A DNA stretch of 63,263 bases, counting the filler, from Stramenopiles sp. TOSAG23-6 (lineage: Eukaryota): NCBI GenBank assembly GCA_900128565.1. It is 5 parts of 5 records of this genome, joined end to end, with 100 filler letters (N's around TTAATTAATTAA, not from the genome) between each part and the next. Parts side by side here need not be neighbours in the genome. Positions count along the whole stretch, not along the records: positions 38,128 to 50,662 come from LT636200.1; 4 more parts are not named here. The stretch is one strand, 5' to 3'. Numbering within the stretch: position 1 is the stretch's first letter; each line of letters starts with the position of its first letter. Below are positions 27,332 to 59,869 of the stretch, piece after piece. The notes below the pieces were generated by a model, which did not search any database, was not told where the DNA came from, and worked only from the letters and a program-made list of their open reading frames with translations. Made by a program: the position numbers and the translations under genes.

Positions 27332-29980
27332 TCATTCATAATCAACTTCGATACTATCATCATCATCGTCAGCTTCAGCATGACTCATGTCACTTTTTAC
27401 TATTACAGCAGGATTTTCGTTTTCCTCTTTAATTTCTGTGACGTTTGGTTTTGCATCTTTTGGTTTTGAATCATCATTATTACTGTCCGATACAACATTC
27501 GAATTACAATTTGATTCATCATTGTTATTTTTTACACTTTTTGTTTTTTTCCATTCAAGTAAAATGTTTTGACCACGAAACAAATTACCGAATTTCATTG
27601 CTTTTTCAGCTTCCCAACGATTTATATATTTCACATGAGCGACTCTGTCTTTAATCTCAACTTGAACCGTACCAAACGCACCAAAATGTTCTGCAATAAG
27701 TTCTTTACTAACATCAGTGTCAAAATTTGTCCATGTCATTTCCGTAGGTCGAAGATCCAAAGATTTGTATGACTTATAATTTCTCCCTCTTCCTCGACCT
27801 CCTCTTCCTCGGCCTCGGCCTCCTCTTCCCCTACCAGATAGTTCCCTTTTGGATGCCAGGGTTGAAGAAGCTACTGCATTTAATTCTTTAAGTGTTTCCA
27901 TTGAAACTTGGATTTCTTTCATTAAAGCTAATATTTCTTTTTTTGGAGCTTTTTTTGATGACATTTCAAAAAGAAGATTTTTTTGATCTTTTAATTTCTT
28001 TTGAATTTCAGATCTTTTTTTTGTCTGATCAGTATGAAGAGCGAGCTCTTTTTGTGCTCTGATAATATGTTTTGGTATTATTTTACTTTTTTGAGACTTT
28101 TCAGGTTGAAAGTCATCAGTTTGTGATTTGCTATTTTGGTTCATAATTCTAGCATTTCGTTTTTTATCTTTTTCTTGTTGTTCTTTCACTGCATATGTTG
28201 TGAATAAATATTAGCACAGTTTTAAAATTTGTTAAGTACAAAAAAAAGAAATTTGAATAATACATTTGAAATGAATGATGATGCAAATGTACATCTACAA
28301 ACATTAAAAAAAAACGGGTTTGTTTAGGTACAAAATTTCGTATGAAAAAAAACATACATGTTGTTTATCCATAGTATCTTGAACTTCAGCATTTGGTGCT
28401 TCGTCTAAATCACCAAGTTCTGTTTTAGCCCACGAAACCTATAGTATATAGCATATGCAAAATTGTATTTAAATGAATAAAAAAATGTCAACACAAAATG
28501 AAATATAATTGAACAATAGAAATATAATTGAACATAATTGAACAATAGAAATATAATTGAACAATAGAAATATAGAAATATAGAGCATCAGAGTTAGTAC
28601 ATTTTTCATAATGTTTCTTTTTTTTAAGATCACATTTGCTCAAATGACACGCACTATAGTTAAATCAGGGCTCTATTCATCAAAAGACAAATTCATAAAA
28701 ACAAATACAAATTCATAAAAACAAATTCATAAAAACAAATACAAAAAAATACAAAAAAATACAAAAAAATATTTGATGCTATAAACAAAACATACAGTAA
28801 TGAATCGATTATTGCATACCGATTGAGGTGACTTGAAGGCTCTTTCTGCCCCAGCACGAGACTCAAATTGAATGTATGCACACTTCGATTTTGGTTTCAT
28901 TTGGACATTAATGACATTACCAAATTTACCAAAATGAGCACATATTTTACCCATATTTACATACTTTGGGTCTACTTTTCTACATAGCAAAGTTGTTATA
29001 GTGTTTGAATTGGTTGAATATTGTTGATTATGAGATTTAGGATATGAGTCATTTCCAGTTCCATCACTTTCACGTCGCAAATTATTTCTATTATAATGCG
29101 TACTAGGGTTAGGGCTGTTAGAGTTCAAATCTCCACGTTTTGCAAAATTAGGTTTACGAAGGTCTTTTTCTCCATGAGCCCAGTTACAGCGATTCTCGAA
29201 TTTACAAGATCCTGTTCTTCTGTAATTATCACATAATTTTGTTTTGTAAAAAACTTCACCAGAAGGAGAAAGAGGAGTGTGTCGTCTGAAATCAACAGAT
29301 TGAGGAGAACTTCTGAATTCTCTGTTCGACTCTCTAAAACCACTAGAGTTAGGGTTAGGGTTCTCTCTATAACCACTAGAGTTAGGGTTAGGGTTCTCTC
29401 TATAACCACTAGAGTTTTGAGAATATCTGTTTGGTACATTTCTACCATCATTTTTGGGACATTGCTGCCAACCATTATCATTTCTATCATTCGTACGACG
29501 TCGTTTTGAGTCATGATATTGAATATCACTACCAGAAGGACGAGATTTGTTTCCCCAATCCACACGTCGTTTGTCCATCCTAGACCTCCTATGATATTCA
29601 TCACTCATTTCATTGTCATTTCTCCGCGTGCGCCGATAATGATGTTCATCCTCGTCATCACTAATATGTCTACTTCCCTGGCGTACTGGATGTCTCGTAT
29701 CCTGTACACGCGACGACGTTCCACCATTGACTCCATCAAAAAAAGCTCGAGTGTCCATCACATTGAATAGTAAGTCAACAAAAGATTCCACGTCTTTGTT
29801 TTCCATAAATGGTTTCATATTTACAACACAATGTTGCTTATGCTCAACAATCGGTAAATCCTTTTGTAAAAGTTTCAAAGTATATTCAGAAAGTACTTGA
29901 GTGTTTTCCACACCGATTACGTTTAATTGATACACCAACCACTTCAGCAATGGGTCTTCCCAATTCTTTTCGACCTTCAT
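27332..29980 (-). CDS. RBM26: RBM26/27-like RNA-binding protein (PWI, CCCH, 2 RRM); exons 29980-28796, 28438-28358, 28192-27332
   Basis: PWI-like N-terminus, YKTKLC..C..C.WAHG, RRM ending NNRFIT|VSW, RGG stretch and a second RRM. Confidence 0.85.
28193..28357 (-). mobile_element. Composite (double) introner intron, GT-AT, 165 nt
   Basis: CAT|GTATGT...two GTACYTAA cores...CACAACATAT|GCA. Confidence 0.65.
28439..28795 (-). other. Canonical GT-AG intron, 357 nt, containing simple repeats
   Basis: ACT|GTATGT...CTATAG|GTT. Restores NNRFITVSW. Confidence 0.85.
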
Positions 29981-30395
29981 TGAATAATCTTGGTATTACA
30001 CTATAACAAAATATGTAATCCTCTGCAAATAATCTCTGCCGCTAAAGATTGGACAATGAATCCACTTTCCTTTTTTCTAGTAAGAAGACAACGCGCACTC
30101 GAAAATACCCGAGTATTTTAATAAATGTGGAGAGGACGACGACTACTGGTGCACTACTGGTAGTAGACTGGTCACACGATCAAACCTGAGCTGACTGACA
30201 ATATATACACTACACGAAATCGGGAGCTTTCTAGGTACTACTTATCATCCATTCAGCTCTAAAACGATGCACGAATGTCTCACTAATCTTGCTTCAACTG
30301 AAATTACTAACAATTTGCTTCCATTTGTAAATTTGTTAATTGGTATGAAATTTTCAATGAAAAAAAAAATCTATAAAAAAAAAAAATGAAAAGTT

Positions 30396-32811
30396 TCAAC
30401 TATCATTTAATTTAATTCCTAGTCTATCTTTAGGCAAAAAAAGTATTGTAATGACACCTCCAAGTATATACATCATAGCAAATGTACTCATGGCTAAATC
30501 AGGATTATTCTTCATTAAATAACCGCCAATAGGAGGACCCAAAGCACCCAATAATCTTGAAGAACTGACTCCCAAGCCAGCAGCGGCAGCACGAATACTT
30601 GTAGGATACGCTTCGGCAGTAAAGACCATCATTGGAATCCACACCCATGTATTGTGAAAAAAAAAAATTATAAAAATTTGTTAGGTACAAAACTTCGTCC
30701 GAAAAAAAATTTAGAAATTCAAAGAATAAAACAATAAAAAAAAATGAAACATACATGTCCCAAATCCTTGGACGCTTCCTAATGAGATACAAATCTGTGG
30801 GAAATTATATCCAATGATAACACCAAATGTTGCAATTCCTGCACCAAAAAAGCCAATATAAACAAATATTTTTCTTCCCAATTTATCTATTCCAACAGCA
30901 CGTATTGTAAAAATATATTTCTTTTTTTTTTTGAAAAGATCGTTAGGTACAAAATTTCATATGAAAAAAGAATAAAAACTCCAATTCTGAAAACGTACAC
31001 ACGAAAGTGTAAATATTATATCTGCAATTTGACCTGATGCGCAAATGTAAGCTATATCTAATTGATTCAGTCCCTTCTGCTTTTCTAAATAAGTAGGCCC
31101 AAATGCTCTAACACCTACTGTCGGAAATCCCACTAAGCAAGTTATCAAAACAATTATTACTGTAATATATACATAGGGAGGTCGGTATGGAGTGTGAAAA
31201 AATATTCCTTTTCTTTTTAAATCGTTAGATACAAAATTTCGTATGAAAAAAAAAAGGTAAAAAATTCAATTTTGAAAACGTACACAATTGCACAGGAAAT
31301 GCTTTTCTCAGCCAATCAGTATTTTTACAAAACCAACGCATTTTCTTTGGTTGATGTTGGTGGCGGTGTTGGTGTTGGCGTTGATGGTGTTGGTGGTGGT
31401 GTTGATGGTGTTTGTGTTGATGGTGTTGATGGTGTTGGTGGTGCTGGTGGTGTTGGTGCAGGTGACTCGATTCTATTTCATGACTTTCGGTTGTATCATC
31501 ACTACTACTATTAATTGGTCCATTTTCTTGATTGTTTTTCTTTCTATGTCGTCTTCGCCTGAGAAGACTTGATTGTTCATTTGCTTGACTAGTAGATGTA
31601 TCTTGAACAAATATAATTCTTTTTAGTAAAAAAAATATGTTAGGTATGGAATTAGGTACAAAAAAAATTGAAATTTTGAAAAAAAATGTTAGGTATGGAA
31701 TTAGGTACAAAAAAAAATTGAAATTTTGAAAACGTACACATTTTATCTAGTGGTATTAAGTGTAGTTGACGAAGATCTTCCATTTCTTCAGGTGTTACAG
31801 GATTTCCATTCATTTTACGAATTGAAATAAGCGTTTTTATTGCTCTCTTTGTTTCTCCGGCGAATATTAAATAACGTGGAGATTCGGGTAAAAAGAACAT
31901 CATGTATTTTGGAAAAATATTTCAAAAAAAAAACACTAAAATTTGTTAGGTACAAAATTTCGTACGAAAAACTTTCGAATTTGAAAAAAAGTAAAACATA
32001 CATACAGACACATAAACTAAACGATGGAATTGAAGTGACTAAGACACAAACTCTCCAATTAGGCAACATATAATAACTAACCATGTTGGCTAAAAGTCCA
32101 CCAACTGGCCAACCTAAACGTGTCAAAACCATAATAGCTCCACGTGATTGAATAGGGAAAAATTCAGCAGACATGCTTAATCGAACAGGGCGTTGTAACC
32201 CAAAAGAAACTCCAACGATAAAACGTAAAATCATCAGCTCAAGCCAATCTCGTGCGAGTGCACACATACCTCCAAAAATAATAATGCCTAGAAAACCAGA
32301 ATATAAAAGTGGCAACCTTCCTATTCGATCACATGTGCTGGAAGACATATTTCAAACATTTGAAATTCGTTAGGTATGAAATTGTAGGATTTTCTATGAA
32401 AAAAAAATTTGAAATTTGTCATGGAAACGTACACACTGGGCCTGCAAGTAAAGAACTAAGTGCAATACCAACACATCCAGCTCCGATAATAAGTCCATTT
32501 GAAAATTCAGTTGTTCCGAGATCTTCTTCGAATCTGGTAAACAGAAAGGAATTTATTTCAAAGAAGAGACCATCGGATAGTGCGACGAGCGTAAAATATA
32601 CAAAGCAAAATACATGAAATATTCCAAATTCCATAGTTTCAAACTTGTCTTGAAAATCTCTCAATCGTTGAGTATTTTTTTCTCTCCCATGGAAAGAAAT
32701 GCTATCTGCTGATGTGTCTAATGAAGTTTCCATATCCTCGTCAGAGCTCTCTTCGGGTACGAAGCAAAAGTCACAGCAACATGAAATTCCCGAAAGCTTC
32801 TCGGCAAACAT
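30396..32811 (-). CDS. MFS transporter (SV2/SVOP-like), 7 exons: 32811-32433, 32332-32002, 31901-31738, 31595-31284, 31186-30999, 30899-30755, 30646-30396
   Basis: CDRIGR, LRFIVG, AEFFP..RG, LPESPRYL, IDKLGRK, TAEAYPT.IRA. All exon phases are consistent. Confidence 0.92.
30647..30754 (-). mobile_element. Introner-family intron, GT-AT, 108 nt
   Basis: ACAT|GTATGT...CACAATACAT|GG. Confidence 0.85.
30900..30998 (-). mobile_element. Introner-family intron, GT-GT, 99 nt
   Basis: TGT|GTACGT...TACAATACGT|GCT. GT is duplicated at both ends. Confidence 0.85.
31187..31283 (-). mobile_element. Introner-family intron, GT-AT, 97 nt
   Basis: TTGT|GTACGT...CACACTCCAT|AC, giving QLYRPPY. Confidence 0.75.
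31596..31737 (-). mobile_element. Introner-family intron with internal tandem duplication, GT-AT, 142 nt
   Basis: ATGT|GTACGT...(GTACCTAATTCCATACCTAAC)x2...CAAGATACAT|CT. Confidence 0.8.
31902..32001 (-). mobile_element. Introner-family intron, GT-AT, 100 nt
   Basis: AT|GTATGT...CAAAATACAT|G, giving MMFFLPESP. Confidence 0.88.
32333..32432 (-). mobile_element. Introner-family intron (diverged), GT-AT, 100 nt
   Basis: GTGT|GTACGT...CCAGCACAT|GT, giving GPVCDRIGR. Confidence 0.82.
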
Positions 32812-33124: not shown

Positions 33125-34377
33125 TTATTTTTTTAGTTTCATTTTTTCTTCGTTACAGCGTATAATAAAAGATAAAATATCAGCAGTAAATGCATCAAAT
33201 ACAAGTATGTTGAAAGATCTGTGAGAATGTTCAACAATATATTTCCCAATCTTTTGGTTTAATTCCTTCCGCTTTGTCAAAGCAACAATTCCTGGGGTTT
33301 TACCAAAACCCAAAGAAAAAATATTACGAATTTCTTCTGTCGTAATAATTTTACCATGCATTTGGAAATGTGCTGCTTGAAGACATATCTTATCATATGA
33401 TGGGTCTCTACTTATAGATTCTTCTTCAATACATTTTTTCAGTATTGTGAAAAAATATTTCAATAATTTGAAATTTGTTAGGTACGAAATTCCGTATGAA
33501 AAAAAAATGAATTTCAATAATTTGAAATTTGTTAGCCATAGAAATCTAGTATGAAAAAAAAAAGTCAAAATGGACAACGTACAACTTGTTCCCAACTACT
33601 TTGTTCTCTATTTCCATCGTAACGGCAATCAAAAACGTCTCTTACATGTATTTTGGAAAAATATTTCAAATTGTTTTTCGTTAGGTACAAAATTTCGTAC
33701 GAAAAAAAAAACTTCGAAATTGAAAAAAAATGAAAACGTACATGTATAAAACTGTAGTTCCCTAAATATTGATTTGAAACTAATCCAAGTTGCCACTTGT
33801 TCTGAATACATGTTTTAATATTTATGTTTGCTAAATTTTCTGAATTTGGAATAGCAATATCTGAAAATATTCGTATAGCATTCATAAAAGTTCTGGAGTC
33901 TAATTCAACTTCAATATCATCTTTTCGTGCAATACCAAATTCATCAAATTTAATTATGATAATTTCTAATGGATTTTCATGTAAGAAAGTCCGAATAACA
34001 TCAAATGCATCATATATTGTTGGATATGTGAACCAAACAACACCGTGATGAAATGTTGGTATTTGGTCTACAAGAGGTCGAAAGTCAAGATATCTTACTC
34101 CAGATTCTAAAAGTTCTTTCAATGAAAGCGACTGTGTAATTGACCAATTTAAGTATTTTCGTTGTAACCATCTTTGTTTTACTTCTTTTGTAAAACTATC
34201 ATGGACATTTTTTATATCCCATTCACCACTGATGCTATGATGAGTTCCTGGTAATACAATATCTTTCAGTTTTCTAGAGGTCCAAAGGGAACCAAATGTA
34301 TTGACCATTTCTTCCATCCATCTCTTTCCATTGTATGCACCTTTAGACTTTGGGATAGAATCATGATTTTTAGACAT
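33125..34377 (-). CDS. PI-PLC X-domain protein (PLCXD-like); exons 34377-33742, 33645-33583, 33439-33125
   Basis: LPGTHHS, WSITQ, GVRYLDFR, FLHENPLEIIII, C-terminal FNILVFD. Confidence 0.88.
33440..33582 (-). mobile_element. Introner-family intron with internal duplication, GT-TG, 143 nt
   Basis: GTT|GTACGT...CACAATACTG|AAA. Confidence 0.78.
33646..33741 (-). mobile_element. Introner-family intron, GT-AT, 96 nt (3n, stop-free)
   Basis: CAT|GTACGT...CAAAATACAT|GTA. Confidence 0.85.
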
Positions 34378-35610: not shown

Positions 35611-37974
35611 TCAGTTTCCTAAATTTCTTTTCTTTTTCAATGAATTATTAGATGAATTTTCATCAATTTTGCGTTTTCTACTTTCAGAAAAATCATGTTG
35701 AATCAATTTTTTGGCAACGCTAAACGGAATATCTAAACCTACATGACAACGAGTGATACCTTGCTCAAAAGAGGAGCAACGTAAAACTTTAATGCCTTTA
35801 TTAACATCATGAAATGTTTGCCGATACGCTTCTTGAATAGTTGCCCATATTTCTATAATATTACCACACAAAAGTGAATGTGTCTCCATTCGATTTTTAT
35901 ATTTGCTAGTACAAGGTCTGGTACCTGTTTAGTGAAAAAATATAATATACATTTAAAATACATTAGGTATGTATAAAAACGACTTTTAAAATTGTAATGA
36001 AATGATGAAAATNTACATGGTATCGTTCTACAGGTTATACATTGACCGCAGTTATCTTGAGTGGTGACGTCATCATCATTAAGTGAGACACGTCCCGCTT
36101 GGGAATGTTGATCCATCCAAAGTTGGCGAATATTTTCAATTTCATGGAATGATGAATTACGGTGATCTTTTGCTTTACAAGATTTTGTTGAAAGTTGAGT
36201 TTGAATATTTTTCAAAGTTGGCCGGTCAGTAAACTCTGTCTTTGGAAGGTTAGTATTGGAGATTTGTTGTACAATCTTCTTGAAAATATTTGGAGCCATA
36301 TTCTTACTACGTTTGTGTGGATAATACACTGTAAATTGCGTATGTTGAGGAAATCTTGACCTTTTAGATAACTTGCGCTCAAGTTCTTGTGAAGACATTT
36401 GTTCTAGCCCCTGAGGTAAAACTTCCATAAATAGCATGCACTCACGACGCCGAGAGCCTTGTCGGGGAACCCAACTGTAAAAACCATCATGAGAACCAAA
36501 AAACTTGTACGAATGGGATGCTCGACGTAAAACATTTCGACCACTCCAACCATCAATTTGTACATTATTATTTACATCATCACCAATGATATTCATTCTT
36601 TTTTGTTTCAATCGAGTCATACGAACAATACGATCTTTTAACAAGTTTTCAGCGGATTCAAAAGATCGGCCAAAATCAATGGAACATTCAACAACTTCAG
36701 CACAAACACCTTCATCGTTTGTTTGAATTATTTTAGGTAATTCGCATTTATTAAGAAAAAATATTTGGAAAAAAAAATCGTTAGGTACGGAATTTTCTAT
36801 AAAACAAAATATTTTGACATTCAATTCTGAAAACATGCATAATTTAACACTCGTTGCGCCAAGTTGGACTGCTGATTGAACACCTGGATTCCAAGTATCT
36901 AACATTTTTGCTTCATCCACTTTTTGTTTGTAGCAAGCAAGAAATGCATCAAATATATAATTTTGCCAAGCATAAGGGTAATTTAAAACACGATTAGCAA
37001 AACCTTTGAAAGTGTCCCATTTTCGTAAACCTCCACCACCATAGCTAAGTTTTCCTATAATACAAAGTATGAATGAATTAAGCTTTTCTATTTTTAAATA
37101 ATCAATATCCTCATCATCCTCATCCTCATCACCTGATATACTCAAATCAATATCGTCTTGACTAAAATCAGGTCGATTGTATTCTAATATTTTTTGTACT
37201 CCAGACGCAAGATCCTCAGCTAAATTAAGAAATTCATCACTTATACTTACATCCCACATATTTTTAATTGTACCATCAGCAACACATGGTAACATCAATT
37301 CACCTGAAAATTCTTCTTTATCATTCTTATTTTGTAATTCTTGAGCAACAGTACCAAAATTTTCTTCACATTGAAATTTTCTACTATTTTTACTTATAGC
37401 TCCTCGTAAATCATTCAGAGCTTGAATACCATACTCATTTTGCCAGTTCATTTCTTCAAATAAACTACGACCTTTCTTATGCTCGCCACCAGCAAAAGAA
37501 GCAGAACGATCGCCACGTGTCAATGCTCCTAAAGATTCAAGTCGTGATGTAACTGCAGAAACAAAACGTTTCTCGCCACCTAATTCAGTAACAAAAACTT
37601 TATACATAGGCGGAATGCGTTGATTTGTTCGATGTACTCGTCCCATCATTTGTAATGCAGCATCAGCAGCCCATGGAAGTTCAAGTACAATGTTTACATG
37701 TAATTTTTGGAAAATAATTTTTTTTTTGTACAATTTGAAAGATTGTTAGGTACGAAATTTCGTACGAAAAAACAATGTAGAAAAAAAATTGAAAAAAAAA
37801 ACGTACACGACGACGTTGGCCAGCTATAGGATTATTGCGTTCACAATGCATTGAAATACCAGTTGCAGCAGCACTTGATATTATTGCGACGAATTTCTCA
37901 CCTCTTTGAAATGCTTCTTTTTCTTCTGCATTACTTAAATAGCGATCTTCTAATCTTAATTCATTCGTCACAGC
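35611..37974 (-). CDS. SBNO: Strawberry notch-like helicase, 3' part; exons 37974-37807, 37697-36839, 36745-36017, 35924-35611
   Basis: AIISSAAATGISMH, QRRRV..LELPWAAD..LQMMGRVHRTNQ, GGEKRFVSAV..RLESLGALTRGDR. Confidence 0.92.
35925..36016 (-). mobile_element. Diverged family intron with canonical GT-AG ends, 92 nt
   Basis: CCAT|GTANAT...TACCTAAT...ATATTTTTTCACTAAACAG|GT. Confidence 0.75.
36746..36838 (-). mobile_element. Introner-family intron, GC-AT, 93 nt (3n)
   Basis: TTAT|GCATGT...CCGTACCTAAC...CTTAATAAAT|GC. Confidence 0.72.
37698..37806 (-). mobile_element. Introner-family intron, GT-AT, 109 nt
   Basis: CGT|GTACGT...AAAATTACAT|GTA. Restores QRRRV. Confidence 0.9.
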
Positions 37975-38027
37975 ATGTATTTTGGAAAAATATTTCAAAA
38001 AAAAAAAACTTAAATTTGTTAGGTACA
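37975..38027 (-). mobile_element. Introner-family intron, partial
   Basis: TGTACCTAAC...CAAAATACAT|GCT. The contig breaks inside it. Confidence 0.8.
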
Positions 38028-38127
38028 NNNNNNNNNNNNNNNNNNNNNNNNNNNNNNNNNNNNNNNNNNNNTTAATTAATTAANNNNNNNNNNNNNNNNN
38101 NNNNNNNNNNNNNNNNNNNNNNNNNNN
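38028..38127. other. Artificial contig linker
   Basis: N44-TTAATTAATTAA-N44. Confidence 0.98.
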
Positions 38128-38304: not shown

Positions 38305-39232
38305 TTATACTAAGGGAATCGTTAATGATCCAACTGCACCCCCATCGACAGGAATTATAGCACCCGTAATCCAACTTGAAGATGCAGAACTCAGAAAAAT
38401 AGCAGCACCAGCTATATCTTTTTTCCCTCCAAAACGTTTTAATGGAATACCTTCTTTAATTTCTTCAGTTGTTGCATATTTTTCTAAGCCTTGACTCATC
38501 TTTGAAGGGATATATCCAGGCGCTATTGCGTTAACTGTAATAAAATGGCTTGAAAGCTCTGAAGATAAACTTTTTGTTAGGTGGTGAACACCCGCTTTAG
38601 ATACATCATGTATTTTGGAAAAATATTTCAAAAAAACATTTAATTTTTGTTAGGTACAAAATTTCGTACGAAAAAAAAATCAAAATTGAAAAAAAAATAA
38701 AACATACATAGGCAAAGGTTGGTGTGGACTGTGGTAGTATTCCAGCAATTGAGCCGATATTAATCACTCTTGCTGGATCATCCTGTGTTGCAACATTGTC
38801 AAGAAGCGGTAAAAGACTTCTTGTAAGATAATAAATTGATTTTACATTCAAATCAAGAACCTTATCAAAACCTGCTGTGCTATTGATATTTGAGTGATCA
38901 AATTCTTCACCCCAGGATGTTCCTGAATTGTTGACTAGCACGTCTAACTCTTTTAAACCATATTTATGTTCAAGATCATCTGCTAATCTATTGCAACCAT
39001 CCAAACTTGATATATCTGATCCAAATCCAAATGCTTTACCATGACCTGGTTGTGATTCCGAAAGATCAGAAGCTACATCTGCACAATCTGAACCATTTCG
39101 CGATGTAAGATAAACAGTTGCACCATTTTCAACAAAACTGGAAGCAATCATTTTTCCAATTCCTCGTGCTCCACCAGTAACAAGAACGGTCTTGCCAGCA
39201 ACACTAAATAGACTTTGAAGAGACGATGTCAT
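38305..39232 (-). CDS. Short-chain dehydrogenase/reductase (RhlG-like); exons 39232-38708, 38607-38305
   Basis: TGGARGIG, LVNNSG, catalytic Y|DVSK split by the intron, ITG..IPVDGG. Confidence 0.93.
38608..38707 (-). mobile_element. Introner-family intron, GT-AT, 100 nt
   Basis: TAT|GTATGT...TTCGTACGAAATTTTGTACCTAAC...CAAAATACAT|GAT. Confidence 0.92.
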
Positions 39233-39457: not shown

Positions 39458-40872
39458 ATGGCCATATTTGTTTTAGCACTAACATTCCTATTGTGTAGAT
39501 ATAGTTTGGTATCATCTAATATGGTATCGAAAGACATCATGGATAACTCTACAAAAGCTTTAACTTTGTACAATCCTGGAGCCGTTCTAAAAAAGTTGTA
39601 TTCACCTGTTGTTGACTTTAATTTTGCTGAAATATCTGGAAGTTTCATTGTGAAAATTAAACAGAATATGAAGGGAAAAGGAACGGGTTCAGCTTCTTGG
39701 GATGGTGGGTCCGCAATGGCACACTTAATTCAGAATCCTGATATACTTTTACTTCCACCAAATAGAGGAGGAATTGACTGGTTTCCGTTAGGGTTAGAGT
39801 TAGATGAAACAAACAAAACGGACATTTCACTAAAACAGCCTTTACCTGTAAAACAAGATTGGAATTGGTTAGGAAAACGTGTTGTTGAATTGGGTTCCGG
39901 TCTTGGATTAGTAGGTTTAGTTGCAACTATGCTTGGTGCGGAGGTTTTATGTACCGATGGAGACGAAGAGACTTTAGAAATTGCCGAGAAAAATATAAAA
40001 GATAATATCTCACGCTTTAAAGCGCAAAACGTAGATAATAACGTAGATAATATTGGACAAGCTCATGTTTCTGCATATGCATGGGGATCTGAACCAAATG
40101 CAATGTTAGAAAGAGCATTTGGTTTTGCATATAATTCAGAAAAAATGGAAAAGCTAGGAAACCCTGACCCTAACAAAAATAATATTTATCCTGATGTTGT
40201 AATCGCAGCTGATGTGATTTATGGTGGAAATTCTGAAGCTTGGCACTTATTCATTGAGTCTCTTGCGGCTTTATCAGGTCCAAATACGGTTGTTTTGTTT
40301 GAAATTACAGAGAGATATGCCCGGGAGAAGTATTTATTTATGAAGAATCTTGGTCGACCCGGTAGAAATCATAACGGTTGTACGTTTTCATCATGAATTT
40401 TCAATTTTTTTTTTCATACGAAATTTTGTACCTAAGATTTTTTGTTTTGAGTTTTTTTTCGATACGTTTTTCATCATGAATTTTTTACCTACATTTATTT
40501 CATACGAAATTTTTACCTAACGAAACATTTAAAAAAATGAAATATTTCTTCATATGCATGGCACTCGAGGCGAATTTCTAATGACCTACTACACCCTGAA
40601 TTCCAAAACTCACGTGTGAGTATGTATGTTTTAATTTTTTTTAAATTTCGAATTTATTTTTTTTATAGGAAATTTTGTACCTAACAATTTTTTTATGATT
40701 TTTTTGAAATATTTTTCCAAAATACATATATCAACTGACAAAAAAAAATGGAAGTGTGATGAACGATGAAAATACTAATGGGGAATGTTATGTTGGACGT
40801 TTGCACAAAAAAATCACAAAAGAACAACAACGGATAAAAAAACAAGCTTACGAAAGAACTCTTCAATCCTGA
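39458..40872 (+). CDS. METTL21-like (family 16) protein-lysine methyltransferase; exons 39458-40379, 40560-40623, 40728-40872
   Basis: GTG...WDGG, VVELGSGLGLVG, DVVIAADVIY, and spliced LLHPEF...SIYQL. Confidence 0.85.
40380..40559 (+). mobile_element. Tandem double introner intron, GT-AT, 180 nt
   Basis: GGTT|GTACGT...(TACGTTTTCATCATGAATTTT...CATACGAAATTTT..ACCTAA)x2...ATATGCAT|GG. Confidence 0.75.
40624..40727 (+). mobile_element. Introner-family intron, GT-AT, 104 nt
   Basis: AT|GTATGT...CAAAATACAT|A. Confidence 0.85.
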
Positions 40873-41094: not shown

Positions 41095-42451
41095 ATGGGA
41101 ATGTCGTTACCGGACTTTTGCAAATTAATTGAATCTCAACTTATACCTCGTGAATCTCTAGAAAAATATGAAGTCTTGATAAATCGGCTGCGTAGTATTA
41201 AAAATGAATACTTATCTCATTATTTATTATTAGTTCCAGGTATTAATATAAGTAAAGCTGTAAAGATAATTTGTGATTATTACCCGGTAGACTTTTGCTG
41301 GTCGCCTTGCTTAGAACCTAATTTTATGGCACTGCTGATGCTACACGGCTTTATATGCATAGCAAGTGAGGTTAGGATACCTCCTATATCATCTGGTGTC
41401 GCAAAAAAGGTGAGAGGCAAGAAGAAAAAGAAAAAGAAAAAGGCAAAAGAACATGTTGTGTTGATGCCAAAGTTGCACCTAAAACGCTCTTTATTATGTA
41501 GTTGGAAAGATTTACACGTTTCGAAGTCAGTAAGAAAACGCAGTAAACATTTTTCTCTCACGTTTAATTCGTCATTTGACCTTGTTGTTACGGGATGTCA
41601 AAAGCAACATGGTAAGGCGTGGCTTTATCCACCAGTAGTCAGTGCATTGCGGTACTTATTTGATCAGACACATGCAAATATAGACATAATTAATGATGAA
41701 ATGGTAAATGAAGTCAAAACTGAAATGGTTGGTGAGTTGAAAACTGAAATGGTTGATGAATTGAACAACTTGCAAGAAAGTATTAGTGCCTTACATACTT
41801 CTGAAGGAAAAAATATTGCACCAAATGAGCCATCAAATGATGCTACTAATAAAATTGGTCTCCATTCAGTCGAGTTGTGGTACAATCCAATATCTACAGA
41901 TAATTCTGGTAATAACTCATTAGAAACGCCCAGATTAGTTGCTGGCGAAATGTACGTTTTATTTTTTTTCAATTTCAAACTTAATTTTTTTTCGTACGAA
42001 ATTTTGTACCTAACAAATTTTGACTACATTTTTTTTTCCACAATACATTGGTTGTGTTGTTGGTAATGTTTATACAAGTTTAACAGGATTTTCTGATAGA
42101 ACTGTTTCAGCTGCTGGGACGGTACAGTTAGTTGCATTAGGGCGAGCTTTAGAATGTATGGGCTTCAAGCTATGGGATTTAGGGATGCATGTATGTTTCC
42201 ATTAGGAATTTCAATTTTCTTTTAATACGAAATTTTGTACCTAACGATTTTTTGACCGAAAAAAAATATTTTTCACAATACATATGTCTTATAAGGAGCG
42301 ACTTGGTGCTAAAGAAGTGAATAGGTCAGATTTTTTATCAAAAAGAAGTCTAGATTTAGTACCAAAGCCAATGTTACTTTCCATGGGTAGTAAATCTTGT
42401 AGTGTTGGACAAGGGATCAATGCTCGGGATATTATAGACAAGAAATTATAA
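41095..42451 (+). CDS. Leucyl/phenylalanyl-tRNA-protein transferase-like; exons 41095-41951, 42049-42190, 42284-42451
   Basis: LMPKLH..R, QHG..WLY, HSVELW, LVAGEIG..VG.VYTSLTGF, AGTVQL, WDLGMHMSYK.RLGA. Confidence 0.88.
41952..42048 (+). mobile_element. Introner-family intron, GT-AT, 97 nt
   Basis: GAAAT|GTACGT...CACAATACAT|TGGT. Restores AGEIG. Confidence 0.9.
42191..42283 (+). mobile_element. Introner-family intron, GT-AT, 93 nt
   Basis: CAT|GTATGT...CACAATACAT|ATG. Confidence 0.9.
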
Positions 42452-45772: not shown

Positions 45773-48700
45773 ATGTCGACATCGCCAAGAATTCCTCCGA
45801 GATATCGGAGGGGTTCAGGCTCACAAGAAGAAGTTGAACATAATTTAGAGACCAATATTGATCTTAGTAATAGTTCAAAGAAAATAGAATCTCAAAGTTT
45901 ACAAGACTATAGTTTTGCGAAATTAGCTCCTACTGAAAGTCCAAGAAAATTAGACCTAGATGATAGTTTAAGAAATAGAGAAACACATACGCCTGATTAC
46001 GATAAATGCTCAGATGCAGGCTCTATAAACACAAATGATACTGATGCAGAATTCAGACCACTTGTGTCTGCTGGGACTGCAGACACTGATAATGCCGAAA
46101 TTCCGCCTCGTCCAATAGACTCTGCTGGGACTGCAGATACAAATGATGCCGAAATTCCACCTCGTCCAATAGACTCTGCTGGTACTACTGCATCTATTAG
46201 TGATCCAATTAATTCAGTTGAAACCACTGACTCAAGTAGCATTTTTTCGAGATCAGCGGACAATCAATCTAGTGTACATACTACAGATGAAGACGATGAT
46301 GTATGTTGTTATCATTAATTTAAAATTTATATTTTTTGTACCATATTTTGTACCTAACAAATTTTTGATTAAACAAATATTTTTTTACAACTCATGAAAA
46401 ACAGAGGAAGTATTTAGAAAAGTGTATTCAAAAGCAACGAAAAATAAGAAACCAATTGGTTCAACAACAAAATCAAAGTCGGCATATACAACATGATAAA
46501 AAAAAGGGGAATAAGAAACCAAAACCAAATTATAAACAGGAAAATAAATTACCCACAATGACTTTACCTGTAAAGAAAGCAAATCTGGCACAAAGTGGGA
46601 GAGATAAGCAAATAAGAAAACAAAAACGAAAATCAAATTCGTCTTCAAAGCCTCCAAGACAAAATCGTAATGCAAAACGGAACTCTAACCGGCAAAAAAC
46701 GAAATCCTCAGTCGCTAAACGCAATAAAAAAAATGGTGTCAAAGAAAACTTACGGGTGATTGTTCGTGTACGGCCGATTAGAACAAGCGTTTCTGAGCAC
46801 GAAACATCAGTAGTTGTGTCGTGTAATGTCGAGAAGTGTAAAATAACTGTGACAGGATCTAGAGGAGACTATCAAACGCGTTTAAATGTACGTTTATTTT
46901 TTTTCAACTTGGAATTTTTTTTCGTACGAAATTTTGTACCTAATGAAAAAAAACATTTTGAAATATTTTTTTCACATTACATAGTAGCGGCGGTCCTCGA
47001 AGTGATCGAAGAAGGACAGCTATGGAATGTCAGTATGATGAAGTATTTGATACATCTTCTACACAAGATGAAGTATATTCATCTGTAAAAGATTCAGTAT
47101 CAGCTGTTCTACGAGGAATAAATTGCACCATTTTTGCATATGGACAGACAGGGACCGGGAAAACACATACAATGCTTGGTCAAGGAATTGAAGATATATG
47201 TACAAAGGGAGTTAATTTAAGTCCTCGAGAAAGCCAAAAATGGGGCATCATTCCGCGCGCATTAAAAGATATCTTCCAGCGATTTGATTCAATGCCCTCC
47301 GATATAAAAATAGAAGTCACATGTTCATATATGCAAATTTATAAGGATCAAATATTTGATCTCCTTCAAGACCCCGAGCGCACAGAATCACTTCGTATTC
47401 GTGCACGCAGAACAGATACACGCGGTGGTTGTGGATCGACAGGAGGTATTCCTCCTTCGTCTCGAGCTCGTCGTCGTACTCCTGATAACGATAGTGATGA
47501 GTTGTATGTTCAGGGACTTTCGGAATATAAAGTTAATAGTCATAATGATGTAATGAAGCTATTATATCAAGGTGGGCGAGCACGAGCTATACGATCAACA
47601 GAAAAGAACGAACAGTCAAGTAGATCACATACAATTTTGCAAATGAGTTTTGTGCTTGAGTCTGGTGCAAAGACAGATGTCACAGTTATTCGTCGAAGTA
47701 AATTAAATCTCGTAGATTTGGCTGGATCTGAAAAGTGGAGTAAGGGGAAACAAATGAAGAATGCTCGAGTTAGTGAAATGACTAAAATTAATAAGAGTTT
47801 ATCAGCCTTGGGTAATTGTATAGCTGCTCTCTCTGAGAATGGCCGAAAGCATATTCCATATAGAGATTCTAAGTTGACACGAATTTTACAGGATTCACTT
47901 GGTGGTAATACACGTACAATAGTTGTAGCTACAATTAGTCCAGATAGATCTTCAACTGAAGAAACATTATCAACACTTGCATTTGCAGACAGAGCTAAAC
48001 GAGTAATGACACGTGTAGCTATTAATGAAGTTGTAAGTGATGCTACGTTACTGAAACGCGCAAAGGTTGAAATTGGCCGCTTGAAAGGAGTAGCATTACA
48101 GACAACAGAAAAATTACGTATTGACAATAAACGTCTACTTGGTGATGTCAGTGTACTCAAAGGTCAATTATTTAAATATAGACAACGTGTGAGGGAACTT
48201 GAAAGGAACGAGAAGCTTAATAAAAAAAGAATAGATGAAAGAAATGTTTCAGGAAAAGAAATATTGAAAATGGGGTTAACGTCTAAAAGTCCCGCCAAAA
48301 CTAAAACTCCTAAGAAAAAATCACATAAAATATCGAAATCATTTATAGAAAATGGCTTGAATTTTCAACAGAATATCATTGATAAGAACAGTTTTGGTGC
48401 AACAACGTCGTCGATAGGAGGTTCTGGTCACTCAAGAGCAGGCGCAGGTATATTTACACCATGGACAGATGTCTCATCACCTCGTCGTAGATCAAGAGTA
48501 AATAGGCAAATAAAGTTGGGTCTTGAACCTTCAGCAACTATAGAACAAAAACAAGCTGACTATTTAAGAACAGATTCCATAGGGAAACTAAAAGGAGTTG
48601 GCTCGCCGTCTTTTAGTAACAATCTTTATCCGTTCACCCCACTTCCGGGTGCTGCAGGGTCTAGATTTTTTTCAAACAATACGCCAGTGAAAACTCCTAT

Positions 48701-49979: not shown

Positions 49980-50608
49980 TCATGAATTAGAAGCCACTGG
50001 AGGTGCAAGTAGTGGCGAATGGCCTGTAGAATCTCTGTCGTTCAGGTTCAGGTTGGGGTTAGGGTTAGGGTTAGGGTTACTACGAATACTACAGGCAAAA
50101 GGGATACTACAAGCTGTGACGATTGAAATTCTAATCAAAGCGCTCATAAAACTTTCATTTTTCAAAAGTGCTGTAGANACTAATGGTCCTATAATAAAAC
50201 CTAAACAAGTAGAAAAGTCTTGGACAGCAAATGTATTGTGAAAAAATATTCTTTTTTTTTGGGGAAAAAAAAATCGTTAGGTACAAAATTTTAATTGTAA
50301 AACAAAATTCAATTTATGATGAAAACGTATATACTGCGGCATAAGATCCTAATCCACTGCTATCCACTGTATCTGCTAAAACACTCATTATAGACACTTC
50401 AACAAATGCTACAGATATTCCCACTCCAAAAAGCGCTGGAATAATAACATACAAGTGTAACCAAATATAAAGGAAAGGAATTGAAACAATGGCCAGAATT
50501 ATCCCAAATGTAATTAGTTTCCAAATTTTTATTGAGGAGTCTGAGAGGAATCCACTAATTGGAGTTCCAATGAGATAACCTACAGTGCTTGAAAACCAAA
50601 CAAGACCT
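49980..50608 (-). CDS. MFS transporter (SLC18-like), 3' part; exons 50608-50331, 50230-49980
   Basis: GLVWFSSTVGYLIGTPISGFLSD...YAAVFAVQD...LGFIIGP. Confidence 0.78.
50231..50330 (-). mobile_element. Introner-family intron, AT-AT, 100 nt
   Basis: GTAT|ATACGT...TTTTGTACCTAAC...CACAATACAT|TT. Confidence 0.75.
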
Positions 50609-50662
50609 ATGTATTTTGTAAAAATATTTCAAAAAAAAAACTAAAATTTGTTAGGTACAAAA
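50609..50662 (-). mobile_element. Introner-family intron, partial
   Basis: TTTTGTACCTAAC...CAAAATACAT|AGGT. The contig breaks inside it. Confidence 0.8.
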
Positions 50663-50762
50663 NNNNNNNNNNNNNNNNNNNNNNNNNNNNNNNNNNNNNN
50701 NNNNNNTTAATTAATTAANNNNNNNNNNNNNNNNNNNNNNNNNNNNNNNNNNNNNNNNNNNN
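50663..50762. other. Artificial contig linker
   Basis: N44-TTAATTAATTAA-N44. Confidence 0.98.
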
Positions 50763-50763
50763 G

Positions 50764-52896
50764 GGGAAGAAAAAATCATCACGAAATTCGAAAGAGATAA
50801 AGTCTGTTTCTCAAGTAGAAGATGCTTCACCAAGGAAGAATCTTCACAAGCGGCCAACATCAGATATTGGCTATAATATTTCTGACTCTAGTAAAAATAT
50901 TGTAAAAACAAAGATTACACAAGACAAGTGGACAGAATGTGAAAATCCAGTGACTCGAGAGCAATACTGGTACAATACTTCAACACGTACGAAAACATGG
51001 ATGTTTCTTTTTTTCAATTTCAAATTTATTTTTTTTTTCGTACGAAATTCCGTACCTAACGATATTTTTTGTGATTTCGTATTTTTTCACAATACATATA
51101 CTAATCCATTTACGTCAAGAATAACACAAAAAATACAAGAAAAAGACTGCGACATACTACAAAGTCAACCCACACAACAAATTGAAGATATCACCAAAGA
51201 TAAATTACAAATCGACACCGAGCAGAAAATTGAGAAAGACCAGAAAGAAAATTATAGTTCTAAGGTTTTTAAGGTTGAGAAGCCATTACCAAAGTTAAAT
51301 CTATTTGAATGGGCACTACCAGACGACGATGATATGGCACCAGATGAAGCACAAGTAAATACAGAAAATCAAAAATCCATTTCAAATAATCAAATTACAG
51401 GAAATACAGAATCTCATTCTCAGATTCCACAAAATCTGTCGAAACACAAAGAGTTTCGACGTGCCACTGCACCTGCACAATATATTGAAAAACAAATAGC
51501 AAAGACGCCAGATGAAACACAAGTAAACATGGAAAATAAAAAAATACCGATTATAAGTAATCAAACTGTAGGAAATACAGAAAGGGATTTCCGAAAATCG
51601 CGTTCTCAGATTCCTCTAAAACTATCTATACGCGAAGAGCTTCAACGTGCCACCGAAATAGCAGATCTCAAAGAGCGATGTAGTTTTGCAGAGACCCAAC
51701 TAAAAAGAACAAAAGAAGAACTAGGAAGAACAAAAGAGGAATTAAGAATAATAAAAGAAGAGTTGATAAAACTAAAGACATCTACGTCGAACCGAATATC
51801 AGAACAAGAAGATCGACAAAGAGAATTACAACCAAGGGGATATGGACAGAAATTATCACGAGAACGTTTTGAAAAATCAACAGAGAAGACATTTGATGAA
51901 AATGAAAATTTAATGAGAAGATTAAAAAAATTTGAAGAATCAACGGAGAAGACATTTGATAATAATGAAAATTTAATGAGAAGATTAAAAAATCCTGTAA
52001 GAACTTTTGAAGAATCAATGGAAAACACTCACGATAAAAATTTAATGAGAAGATTAAAAGTTATAGAACGGAAATGTGACGGATTGTACATAAAATTGAA
52101 ATCTCCAAAAAATGTTTCACCTAAATCTAAAATGCCAAAACGGGCATTACATATTCCAGAAGAGTTCATTTCAGCAGAGTCTAGTACAATAAATCCTGTA
52201 CCGCCAAGAAAAGACAAACCGTCCCTAGAAACATCAATGCGATTAATGATGTATACTTCGCCTCAAAGAGAACCAAAAAGATGGCAAGCTAGGGAGTTAT
52301 GGAAAGACAATGGTACAACTCAGTCTGAAAGTTCAGATCCACCATCACCCAACAAATTACCAGAAGAAGATACTAAATATGAGTATCAACCAGAAAACGA
52401 TACCAAATATGAGTATAAAGCAGAAGAAGATATCAAATATAAGTACCAAGATTCGTTCAAAATACAAACTGCATTGAAAAGAAATAAGAATAACAATGAT
52501 GATTCTTCAAGTGGGGAGCCACCAATGCAAAATATTTATACCAATAATTTACCTTCAAATTTTGAATCATCAATACCAAATATTCATAACAATAACATGT
52601 CTTCAAGTGACGAGCTTATATCAACGCAGAGTTCATATAAAGTAGTTGTACGCGAGGATCAAATTCAAAAGCGGCTTAAAGAATTGGAAGAAAAGGTCAA
52701 TAGTGTGATGTCTGAAAGAGCATCAAGAAAATCAAATATAGAGGATGAAAAAAAGGAAGGGGGCGTCACTCAGTACTATTCTAAGGTCGAAAAGCCACCA
52801 CCAAATTTAAATTTATATGAATGGGAATTACCAGACGACGAAGATGAAATAGACCAGACGCAGACGTCACAACTTTCTTCAAATAATTTTTTATGA
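50764..52896 (+). CDS. WW-domain coiled-coil protein, 5' partial; one intron at ~50999-51097
   Basis: KWTECENPVTREQYWYNTSTRTKT(W/Y)TNP, a coiled coil, and a duplicated KVEKP.P.LNL.EW.LPDD motif. Confidence 0.72.
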   Translation, partial: GKKKSSRNSKEIKSVSQVEDASPRKNLHKRPTSDIGYNISDSSKNIVKTKITQDKWTECENPVTREQYWYNTSTRTKTWMFLFFNFKFIFFFVRNSVPNDIFCDFVFFHNTYTNPFTSRITQKIQEKDCDILQSQPTQQIEDITKDKLQIDTEQKIEKDQKENYSSKVFKVEKPLPKLNLFEWALPDDDDMAPDEAQVNTENQKSISNNQITGNTESHSQIPQNLSKHKEFRRATAPAQYIEKQIAKTPDETQVNMENKKIPIISNQTVGNTERDFRKSRSQIPLKLSIREELQRATEIADLKERCSFAETQLKRTKEELGRTKEELRIIKEELIKLKTSTSNRISEQEDRQRELQPRGYGQKLSRERFEKSTEKTFDENENLMRRLKKFEESTEKTFDNNENLMRRLKNPVRTFEESMENTHDKNLMRRLKVIERKCDGLYIKLKSPKNVSPKSKMPKRALHIPEEFISAESSTINPVPPRKDKPSLETSMRLMMYTSPQREPKRWQARELWKDNGTTQSESSDPPSPNKLPEEDTKYEYQPENDTKYEYKAEEDIKYKYQDSFKIQTALKRNKNNNDDSSSGEPPMQNIYTNNLPSNFESSIPNIHNNNMSSSDELISTQSSYKVVVREDQIQKRLKELEEKVNSVMSERASRKSNIEDEKKEGGVTQYYSKVEKPPPNLNLYEWELPDDEDEIDQTQTSQLSSNNFL
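50999..51097 (+). mobile_element. Introner-family intron, 99 nt (3n), atypical donor (GG, or AT if shifted +2)
   Basis: ACAT|GGATGT...TTCGTACGAAATTCCGTACCTAAC...CACAATACAT|AT. Confidence 0.75.
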
Positions 52897-57811: not shown

Positions 57812-58149
57812 GTTGGATCTATCAATATCAAGAATGTATTTTTACAACAGCTTTTGTTGGCCCAATGGGCAAAATAATATGATTTGATTTAGTATGTTTT
57901 TGATTAGTATAAAGTGTAACGTTTGTAACGCTTTTCAAAAAAATGGCGATGGAACAAACCTGTAGAAAAGGGGGAATCGAAAGAAAAAAATGGACAATCA
58001 TCAGACATTTGACTATTTACGATCGATCACACAAACACACACACCACTACCAAGGTTTCTTTTCGCTAACAAGGTTTCTTTACATATAATTAGCCTACAT
58101 GCAACAGAATTGCCTACAATAATTTTGTTGTCAAGACTATCTTCCAAAG

Positions 58150-59869
58150 ATGAGTTCAAGCAGTAATATTCATCGAAGCGCTTCTAATAGTAAACCTGAG
58201 ACTCTTGAGTTATCAAACCGTGCACTTCTTGCGCAGGAACGTCATTCACAAGTTCTCCTTGACTTGGAAACCCAGCGCCGTGCACGTACTATCGCTGTTC
58301 CTACTCTTGATTCCGATGTAAGGACTTCACTTCGTGAACTAGGTTATCCTGTCACTTTATTTGGTGAGCGTAAGGAAGATCGTCGTGTTCGTCTGCGAGA
58401 AATTACAGCTCGTATTGAAATATTGGGAGAAGAGGCTGCGTCTATTTCGAAGTTAGCTTCTATTAAGTCTGGCTGGAGTAGACCTGGAAATGAAAAATCT
58501 ACCACAGGTGAACAAGAAAATGTTCAAAAGGAAATAGTGTATACTCCAGCTTCCGAACCATTGTTAAAAGCACGTCAAAGTATTGCCACGTTTTCTTGGT
58601 CACGTGCAAAAGATCGGATAGCTTTTCGCAAGAAGAAAAAAAAAAGTGTAGAGTTGGTTGAAAAAGACGCTGTAATGATTAAAGATAAATACAAAGAGTT
58701 AAGTAACGTTCGTATGAGAGATTCACAGATTGGGAGTACGCGTCCAGTTGCTGCATGCACATTTTCTTCTGACTTTAAAAGTAAATACGTTGCGACAGCT
58801 TCGTGGAGCGGTACTTGTATGTTTTATTTTTTTTCAATTTCGACTTTTTTTTTCGTACGAAATTTTGTACCTAATGATTTTTTTTTTGAAATATTTTTCC
58901 AAAATACTGCTCAATTATGGGATCGGCAATCTTGTGAGAGTCTTCTTGTGTATCGTGGACACGAAACCCGTGTCGTTGATATCCAGTTCCACCCATCTGC
59001 ATGTCATGGAACTTTAGAAACAAACGCTTCAACTTATTCTATGACGGCTGCTACACCAACAGCTTCTTGTGCGTGTGTTGCTACTGCTTCTGCTGATAGC
59101 ACTGTCAAATTATGGTCATTAGAAGCTGACGAATGCCTTCGAACATTACGTGGCCATCAAAATAGATTAGCATGTGTTCGATGGCATCCTAATGGTTCAT
59201 TTATAGGAACTACATCATATGATCATACGTGGCGTTTATGGGATGTGGAATATGGACATGAGATTCTATTACAAGATGGAATAGGCGTTGCTGCTTATGC
59301 ACTTGCATTTCACCCTGATGGTAGTCTTGCTTGTACTGGTGATATGAATGGCGATGCAAGATTATGGGATATGCGTTCGGGACATAGTCCATTCTCTATG
59401 CAAGAACACGCTAGTGGCGTAATCTCTGCTGATTTTTCACCGTCCGGGACATTATTAGCGACAACTGGACTTGATCATATGTACGTTTTCACCATGAAAT
59501 CCAAATTTTTTTTACTATTAAAATTTCGTAAGTACCTAACATTTTTTTTTTCTGATGCTTTTTTCACAATACATGGTACGTTTGTGGGACTTGCGGATGC
59601 GGAAATGTTATCATGCTCTTCTAGCACACTCCAAATTAATATCCACTGTAAAGTTTGCACCTGTAAGTGGTGAAGTTCTATTGACGGCTTCCTACGATGG
59701 AACAGTGAAACTTTGGGGGACTCGAGATTGGAGACTATTAAGTACTTTAGACGGACATGAAAATTTTGTAATGTGTGCAGATATATCACGAAGTGAAACT
59801 CTATTTTTATCATCTTCTTTTGATAGAACTTGGAAATTATGGGCACCGGAGAACGATGATGAGTGGTAA
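58150..59869 (+). CDS. PRPF4: U4/U6 snRNP protein PRP4; exons 58150-58816, 58910-59480, 59575-59869
   Basis: SFM motif VPTLD..VR..LRELGYPVTLFGE...RR.RLR, SQIG..RP, and WD40 repeats. Confidence 0.94.
58817..58909 (+). mobile_element. Introner-family intron, GT-TG, 93 nt (3n)
   Basis: ACTT|GTATGT...CAAAATACTG|CT. Restores SWSGTxQLW spacing. Confidence 0.85.
59481..59574 (+). mobile_element. Introner-family intron, GT-AT, 94 nt
   Basis: CATAT|GTACGT...CACAATACAT|GGTA. Restores DHMVRLWDLR. Confidence 0.9.

Follow-up and report, generated by a model that had tools for sequence, protein, structure and literature searches.

What marks the 3' end of an intron that closes on AT while AG dinucleotides stand a few bases away? 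The question is raised by a kinesin gene in a 63,263-nucleotide (nt) stretch of DNA from Stramenopiles sp. TOSAG23-6 (GenBank assembly GCA_900128565.1), called the window below; the gene lies in the part taken from record LT636200.1. A first-pass annotation of the window had singled out three introns, in genes for a kinesin, a SNAP protein and a transporter of the MFS family, as ending in AT where usable AGs are bypassed. We have analyzed these introns together with their relatives in the window. Judging from their sequences, the three are copies of one dispersed, short, transposon-like family that interrupts many genes, and their alike 3' ends would follow from that kinship. Probably this is a family of miniature transposon-like introners that has multiplied within the genes of a marine stramenopile of the MAST type and is excised at a non-AG 3' border. 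Reading frames and homology make it likely that the copies are removed from RNA, with the spliceosome as the agent.

Junctions of the three introns

The kinesin intron (46888-46982, + strand, 95 nt) follows an exon that ends in CGTTTAAAT, runs from GTACGTTTATTTT to CACATTACAT and gives way to an exon that begins with AGTAGCGGC. Within it the family sequence reads GTACGTTT...TACCTAAT...TTCACATTAC followed by AT, and an AT also stands before it. The start given in the first-pass annotation is correct; the end given there, 46990, falls 8 nt inside exon 2, and the true end is 46982. The two neighbouring AGs have their last base 2 and 5 nt into exon 2 and behave as had been described: with the GTACGT donor, the first (which is also the first AG after the branch box) produces an immediate TAG stop with no open codon, and the second shifts the frame. 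No in-frame pair was found among the GT donors between -30 and +12 (at -8, 0 and +4) and the AGs between -40 and +30 (at +2, +5, +20 and +29). Strand beta-1 (LRVIVRVRP) is encoded in exon 1 and the P-loop in exon 2, which requires a common frame for the two exons; with the intron retained the protein is truncated ahead of the motor domain. The loop that spans the junction has 87 residues, against 64 to 95 in 30 homologues; because the length of this loop is variable, the evidence at this junction is that of frame and not of residue-level homology.

SNAP intron 1 (22629-22721, +) is a diverged copy with GT before and AT after the element (flanks are written GT/AT from here on). A CAG ends 7 nt ahead of its ...ATACAT end, and none of the nearby GT donors is in frame with it, which bears out the earlier description of this site. 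For a canonical GT-AG pair to be in frame, the AG has to lie 22 or 28 nt into exon 2, at the cost of 8 to 19 residues. Such pairs are contradicted by the Pfam SNAP profile, in which the last residue of exon 1 extrapolates to position 158 and the first of exon 2 is position 159, with no gap. A PDB search with exon 2 alone gave no match.

The intron of the MFS transporter (32333-32432, -; GT/AT) is also diverged, and a CAG ends 5 nt before its junction. That this CAG would break the frame holds for the GTACGT donor; it does not hold for a GT 2 nt upstream, with which the CAG is in frame at the price of one extra Thr. The two solutions can be compared in motif A, which the non-AG junction rebuilds as GPVC/DRIGR (the slash marks the junction). 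Four residues ahead of the Asp, 99 of 114 homologues have Gly and a single one has Pro; the non-AG junction places Gly there and the GT-CAG alternative places Pro, so that the latter is disfavoured by the spacing of the motif. Exon 2 aligns to SLC22A6 from D157 at its first residue onward; a PDB search with exon 1 alone gave no match. All seven exons of the gene join into an open reading frame (ORF) of 608 codons with GPVCDRIGRLPLL, PESPRYL, DKLGRK and AEAYPTSIR. The central loop of the transporter (31284-31595, -) contains a long low-complexity run rich in His and Gln (HLHQHHQHHQHHQHHQHKHHQHHHQHHQRQHQHRHQHQ). Ciliate-like TA...TA borders were considered as well. These also keep the frame (+6 nt), but they were rejected, since motif A would then contain two additional residues, as would the SNAP protein after profile position 158.

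A family of similar introns

When the three introns are aligned they have long blocks in common. A 10-mer from these blocks, TTTGAAATAT, occurs 13 times in the window against 1.26 occurrences expected, and a search of the window with an nhmmer profile gave about 30 matches at E<1e-3, and more with a rebuilt profile. Both ends could be defined for 28 copies, which form the set described here; some of the position counts use 26 copies. The copies are 89 to 109 nt long, except for three with internal duplications (142, 143 and 180 nt), and the identity of a copy to its nearest neighbour lies between 0.62 and 0.89.

The copies share one anatomy: a dinucleotide NT, the start GTAYGTTTT, then TTTCGTACGAAATTTTGTACCTAAC, a T-run and TTTGAAATATTTTTCCAAAATAC, followed by a second NT. 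At the 5' end (26 copies) the last exon base is T in all 26, and the intron has G at +1 in 26, T at +2 in 24, A at +3 in 25 and G at +5 in 26, then TTTT. The branch box TACCTAAC, as the pattern TA[CT]CTAA[CT], is present in 26 of the 28 copies at 34 to 48 nt from the 3' end. The position profile of 26 copies places the T-run at -16 to -11; the terminal consensus after it is TTCAMAATAC, then NT, with C at -3 in 25 copies, A at -2 in 22 and T as the last intron base in 24. Exon positions outside the conserved ones carry about 0.1 bit. In older copies the interior has drifted, and the 5' site, the branch box and the 3' end are retained. A candidate terminal inverted repeat, seen in the position profile and as the outer stem of predicted folds, is short, (AT)GTAT.../...ATAC(AT), or 4 to 6 nt; the five longest pairs returned by a repeat search are internal and A/T-rich, and the terminal repeat is not among them. 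Folds of several young copies contain a small hairpin, GUACGAAAUUUUGUAC, immediately 5' of the CUAAC box (for example at 38655-38672, 33690-33707 and 46923-46940).

Every one of the 28 copies has the same orientation as the ORF that it interrupts. The register of excision is equally regular. If each copy is cut from the G of GTAYG to 2 nt beyond the terminal AC (the +2 register), the spanning ORF is the best or ties for the best in 27 of the 28 copies, where chance would give about one third; the same pattern had first been seen as 22 of 22. Only excision of the element plus 2 nt restores both the reading frames and the conserved motifs. A degenerate fragment of the family (30326-30370, -), in sense orientation just past the stop codon of the transporter gene, is the sole match noticed outside a coding stretch.

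Junctions in the dehydrogenase and PRP4 genes

Further junctions can be judged at the level of residues. Excision of a young copy from a short-chain dehydrogenase gene (38608-38707, -) rebuilds FAY/DVSK, the YxxxK motif of the SDR family, and the profile positions run on without a break. The PRP4 gene holds two copies, both inside WD40 repeats: a young one at 58817-58909 (+; TT/TG) and one at 59481-59574 (+; AT/AT). Their removal yields SWSGT(S/A)QLWD at the first, where the register decides between Ser and Ala, and restores the repeat GLDHMVRLWDLRMRKC at the second; both are gapless against 119 homologues.

The public PRP4 model (protein P0206, compared with 58123-59868, +) illustrates how the elements are misread by standard gene prediction. 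It reads into the first element (..SWSGTCMFYFFSISTFFF) and skips AQLWDRQSCE, and at the second it uses a chance GTAAGT...TCTAG pair, by which a WD40 repeat is lost. The same model also drops 60 in-frame nt (GT...CAG) from a variable loop.

The 3' border and the splice register

Counted from at least 8 nt past the branch A, the first AG marks the junction in 1 of the 28 copies. In 7 copies it is an intronic AG that is passed over, and in 20 it is not reached until the following exon; its use would break the frame in 18 of the 28. The proposal that these introns run contrary to first-AG scanning is thereby extended from three sites to the family. The sole AG-ending copy, in a gene of the Strawberry-notch kind (35925-36016, -), has AG after the AC, and the register shared by the other copies makes it a canonical GT-AG intron; its fourth base is an N, and its spanning ORF has 499/104 codons. 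The proposal that AT is chosen over an adjacent YAG is kept in part: neighbouring AGs are excluded by frame in the kinesin gene, by frame and profile in the SNAP gene, and are disfavoured in the transporter gene, but an AT acceptor corresponds to one of three possible registers.

These registers arise from the flanks of the element. The dinucleotide before it is AT in 16, GT in 6 and TT in 4 of 26 copies, and the one after the AC is AT in 22, TG in 2, TT in 1 and GT in 1. The two are identical in 18 of the 26 copies (19 of 28 over the full set), and 16 of these 18 are AT/AT; locus-specific matches are TT/TT, GT/GT and, in part, TT/TG twice. The AT/AT flanks could be part of the element rather than a duplication of the target. 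Where the two flanks match, an intron GT...AT, an intron NT...AC and one shifted by 1 nt (TG...CA) give one and the same mRNA. On balance we prefer GT...AT; we hold NT...AC to be a serious possibility of less than even probability, and the 1-nt shift to be improbable. GT...AT is supported by the classic 5' site, by the variation of the base that would otherwise be intron +1, by the AG-ending copy and by the next exon base, which is G in 15 of 26 copies.

We propose that each copy carries its own signals, which would be the 5' site GTAYGTTTT, the branch box 34 to 48 nt from the 3' end and the T-run. The 3' border would consist of the inverted-repeat terminus of the element (..AATAC) and a 2-nt target dinucleotide, usually AT, which is also present before the element. 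Removal of the element with one copy of the dinucleotide would then return the exact coding sequence that preceded the insertion, and neighbouring AGs, within the last 5 to 34 nt or just downstream, would go unused. TTCAMAATAC-AT is the most conserved candidate signal for recognition of the 3' end. A role of the spliceosome is suggested because the most conserved positions are those that a spliceosome needs; the strict sense orientation is in keeping with splicing signals, excision from DNA would not require it, and the spliceosomal protein PRP4, encoded in the window, is counted on the same side.

Several observations weigh against this proposal. The analysis covers 63 kb, and the assembly is fragmentary, with Ns scattered through it. 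One copy, at 25127-25225 (-; TT/TT), is the sole misfit to the +2 register (35 vs 53 codons); it lies near a contig end. At the first PRP4 copy, the register ...AC/ gives Ala, found in 21 of 119 homologues, and GT...TG gives Ser, which is outside the eight commonest residues. Duplication of the flank is directly visible in the few non-AT cases alone. We know of no precedent for G and T as the first and last bases of an intron. The fold energies of eight copies, several of which are predicted to form a terminal stem AUGUA/UACAU, range from z -2.65 to +0.76 relative to shuffled sequences, and position +4, which is C in 12 copies and T in 14, has no compensating change at -6, where 21 of 26 have A. 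As there is neither consistent fold stability nor compensation, pairing of the ends was rejected as the selector of the 3' border.

The best surviving alternative, which we regard as rather unlikely, keeps the major spliceosome and the same elements and lets the intron run from the dinucleotide before GTAYG to the AC (AT-AC, GT-AC or TT-AC), so that the apparent AT acceptor is the start of exon 2. The Ala of PRP4 favours it, as does the T before GTAYG in all 26 copies, which would suit intron position +2, together with the AC kept in 22 of 26. Introns that begin with A and end with C have compatible ends. The 5' cut would fall 2 nt upstream of GTAYGT, and the first intron base would be A in 16, G in 6 and T in 4, a variation that is odd for intron +1. 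GTAYGTTT is a textbook 5' site, cleaved before its G. The copy with AG after the AC is canonical in the other register only, and in 15 of 26 copies the exon resumes with G behind AC-NT, as it does behind ordinary acceptors. U2-type AT-AC introns as such are known (PMC1557818). What speaks for the ...AC register by residue identity is a single informative position, that of PRP4 58817.

A non-spliceosomal or modified RNA pathway that pairs the ends, as proposed for the nonconventional introns of euglenids, would make AG irrelevant. The base at +1 can pair with that at -3 to leave a 2-nt 3' overhang, the geometry of the euglenid pairing of +4 to +6 with -8 to -6 (PMC11282704), and most predicted folds have a terminal stem. 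However, that stem has 3 to 5 uncompensated base pairs and is disrupted in copies (31283, 36838 and 46301) that have diverged without loss of the frame, the fold energy is indistinct from shuffled sequences in six of eight copies, and a strong 5' site, branch box and T-run are kept even in old copies; this pathway is quite improbable. Less probable again is removal from the DNA in the manner of the internal eliminated sequences of ciliates. Inverted-repeat ends with a duplicated 2-nt flank do have the geometry of precise transposon excision, but DNA excision requires neither the sense orientation of 28 of 28 copies nor the selective conservation of splice-signal positions, the assembly retains the elements in every gene seen, and the borders permit GT..AT, TG..CA or AT..AC and not a TA..TA of the right length. 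Nuclear dualism is not known to occur in stramenopiles. That the AGs are used after all, or that the elements are retained in pseudogenes or assembly artefacts, is scarcely credible: an in-frame GT-CAG exists at 32432, the first AG is in frame in nine further copies, and the assembly is fragmentary, has Ns and shows one apparent frameshift in an IleRS-like gene, but the best or tied +2 register in 27 of 28 copies, the out-of-frame first AG in 18 of 28, the exact rebuilding of conserved motifs at five tested junctions, the loss of the kinesin motor domain on retention and the sense orientation of all copies speak against it.

Comparison with known introns

Under the preferred reading, in which the spliceosome removes the element with 2 nt of its flank, the family most resembles the introners, which are known from Micromonas, Aureococcus, Chrysochromulina, dinoflagellates and others, and one family of which "carries its 5' splice site and co-opts its 3' splice site" (PMC9860276). 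Like introners and introns derived from miniature inverted-repeat transposable elements (MITEs), the copies described here are short, numerous sense elements in genes, with putative short inverted ends and a flank that may be duplicated (PMC9860276, PMC11282704); one splice site would lie in the element and the other border at the duplicated target, which would leave the mRNA unchanged. They differ in that the described introner families are GT-AG or GC-AG, with rare GC or GA 5' sites (PMC9860276), whereas here a co-opted AT is found in 23 of 28 copies, and in that the target-site duplications quoted are 3 to 9 nt, against a putative one of 2 nt here. Surveys of introners begin from annotated introns (PMC9860276, PMC12130899); since public annotation fails in the present genes, such surveys would miss this family.

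Two other lineages offer parallels. The tunicate Fritillaria borealis has lineage-specific introns derived from MITEs, whose commonest 3' ends are AC and AT and which are said to be handled by the major spliceosome (PMC11282704); its introns start with AG after an exonic TAC, whereas those of the present stramenopile protist start with GTAYGT and have a yeast-like branch box. Amoebophrya, a marine protist like the present one, has repeated introns with inverted and short direct repeats over their borders, which makes the border ambiguous, and its machinery must tolerate ends other than GT-AG (PMC7789003). There the inverted repeats are 8 to 20 nt and the direct repeats 3 to 5 nt long, the terminal dinucleotides are not consistent and U1 is not detectable (PMC7789003). 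In contrast, the copies in the window belong to a single family, whose ends are fixed (GTAYG and AC-AT) and whose branch box is strong. The nonconventional introns of euglenids likewise have non-canonical borders, border repeats that resemble target-site duplications and ends that can pair at a 2-nt offset (PMC11282704), but lack the 5' GT, the branch site and the polypyrimidine signals, all conserved here, where the pairing is short and uncompensated.

Canonical U2-type GT-AG introns share with the family the 5' GT (24 of 26 copies), the extended 5' consensus, the branch box and the T-run, and differ from it in the terminal AG, which is found in 1 of 28 copies only. Under the NT...AC register most copies would be AT-AC introns, a class with U2-type and U12-type members; in that register the first base varies among A, G and T, which sets the copies apart from AT-AC introns. 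The branch site of U12-type introns lies some 10 to 20 nt from the intron end. Here the branch box lies 34 to 48 nt from it, and the 5' end, (NT)GTAYGTTT, is without the U12-type [AG]TATCC (ATATCC). Extracts of a study of single-cell genomes from uncultured stramenopiles (PMC5778133) contain the word "intron" twice, incidentally, and never "splice" or "canonical". A search of the literature turned up neither this family nor any GT-AT or AT-AC introners in MAST stramenopiles.

Significance for splicing and annotation

Introns born of transposons with non-canonical ends are, to our knowledge, known from very few lineages (Fritillaria and Amoebophrya). If the present reading is right, the family would add a new case in stramenopiles, and an unusually clean one: the 5' site and the branch box are of textbook form, and the sole departure, the one from AG, is at the 3' border. 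It would also amount to a natural experiment on the choice of 3' splice site, in which AGs a few bases off are unused and one member already ends in AG in the same register. The window contains 28 introns of the family and, bar the AG-ending copy, no verified ordinary intron. We suggest, with some hesitation, that most or all spliceosomal introns in this MAST-type lineage might be copies of one transposon-derived family cut at AC-AT, the choice of the 3' site having been re-tuned genome-wide from the first AG to the terminal motif. In that event systematic errors would run through the gene sets of the lineage: genes would be undercounted, and chimeric models and apparent pseudogenes would stand among the entries. 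Since public annotation misreads the elements, tallies of genes and inferences of gene loss in genomes of this kind may have to be revisited. One may speculate that, were the family to extend through the whole genome, artefacts of annotation could account for part of the low gene counts and seeming pseudogenes reported for MAST-3 genomes (PMC5778133); the window contains no such gene.

Other copies of the family

The remaining copies are distributed over the window as follows. Two interrupt one and the same p25-alpha-domain gene, at 1726-1814 (-; AT/AT) and 2208-2302 (-; AT/AT), the latter with the 5' end GTTTG and a spanning ORF of 500/148 codons. SNAP intron 2 is at 22902-22996 (+; AT/AT), and a young copy is found at 24999-25102 (-; AT/AT). 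The other introns of the MFS transporter, all on the minus strand, are intron 2 (31902-32001; AT/AT), which is young and has the PESPRYL motif after its junction; intron 3 (31596-31737; GT/AT), which owes its 142 nt to an internal duplication; intron 4 (31187-31283; GT/AT), which ends in ..CTCC+AT; intron 5 (30900-30998), with the non-AT duplicated flank GT/GT and an internal AG 21 nt before the junction; and intron 6 (30647-30754; AT/AT).

A copy with an internal duplication (143 nt; TT/TG) lies at 33440-33582 (-), next to a young one at 33646-33741 (-; AT/AT). Besides the AG-ending copy, the Strawberry-notch gene holds a copy at 36746-36838 (-), with 5' GCATG, 3' ..ATAA+AT and a spanning ORF of at least 297 codons on each side, and another at 37698-37806 (-; GT/AT). 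The composite copy of 180 nt (40380-40559, +; TT/AT) ends in ..ATGC+AT and is followed by a young copy between short flanking ORFs of 27/48 codons (40624-40727, +; AT/AT) and by copies at 41952-42048 and 42191-42283 (both +; AT/AT). The kinesin gene has an upstream intron at 46301-46395 (+), which ends in ..ACTC+AT. The copy at 50231-50330 (-; AT/AT) starts with ATACG, with A for the first G, in the usual register (ORF minimum 83 codons, with an N read through), and that at 50999-51097 (+; AT/AT) has the 5' end GGATG.

Two loci are less regular. At 28195-28357 (-) there are rearranged copies that end in ...TGTAG. A single-intron model fails here; a tentative two-intron model, in which the first intron ends in ..TGTAG and the second in ..CACAAC+AT, fits the frame without homology support, and the location may be a 5' untranslated region. 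In this model the AG acceptor is followed by ATGTACAT, which resembles two abutted element ends. A truncated copy that also ends in ...TGTAG lies at 27074-27127 (+).

Genes and sequence context

The window consists of five pieces of about 12.6 kb each, in descending order of length, with linkers of the form N44-TTAATTAATTAA-N44 between them (12623-12722, 25333-25432, 38028-38127 and 50663-50762). A family copy is severed at three of the four internal joins and at the window start, as would be expected if the assembly broke at a repeat: the 3' part of one copy remains at 25277-25333 (-), and others are cut at 37977-38027, 50611-50662 and 1-49.

The genes of the window are ordinary ones, among them those for eIF2B, EF1-gamma, a nucleoporin, SNAP, the MFS transporter, kinesin, PRP4, the short-chain dehydrogenase and flagellar proteins, and about 39 long ORFs are present once 26 family copies are excised. 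The top matches of the kinesin are oomycete proteins with about 50% identity. EF1-gamma is 98% identical to EukProt entry GSMAST32.ASY1.ANO1.2646.1 and the PRP4 protein matches EukProt entry GSMAST32.ASY1.ANO1.1094.1, handles that point to an uncultured marine stramenopile of the MAST kind. No transposase domain was detected among the 33 long ORFs of the window that were scanned. A tRNA scan of the window gave no match, and neither did an Rfam scan, small nuclear RNAs of either spliceosome included, which at 63 kb is a weak test. The IleRS-like gene (25435-26443, +) is split between two ORFs that differ in frame, over which the Pfam tRNA-synt_1 profile runs on from position 160 to 162. Some twelve residues that would be expected at the break, near 26205-26225, appear to be absent; no family copy lies there, and the break may be a deletion or an assembly error.

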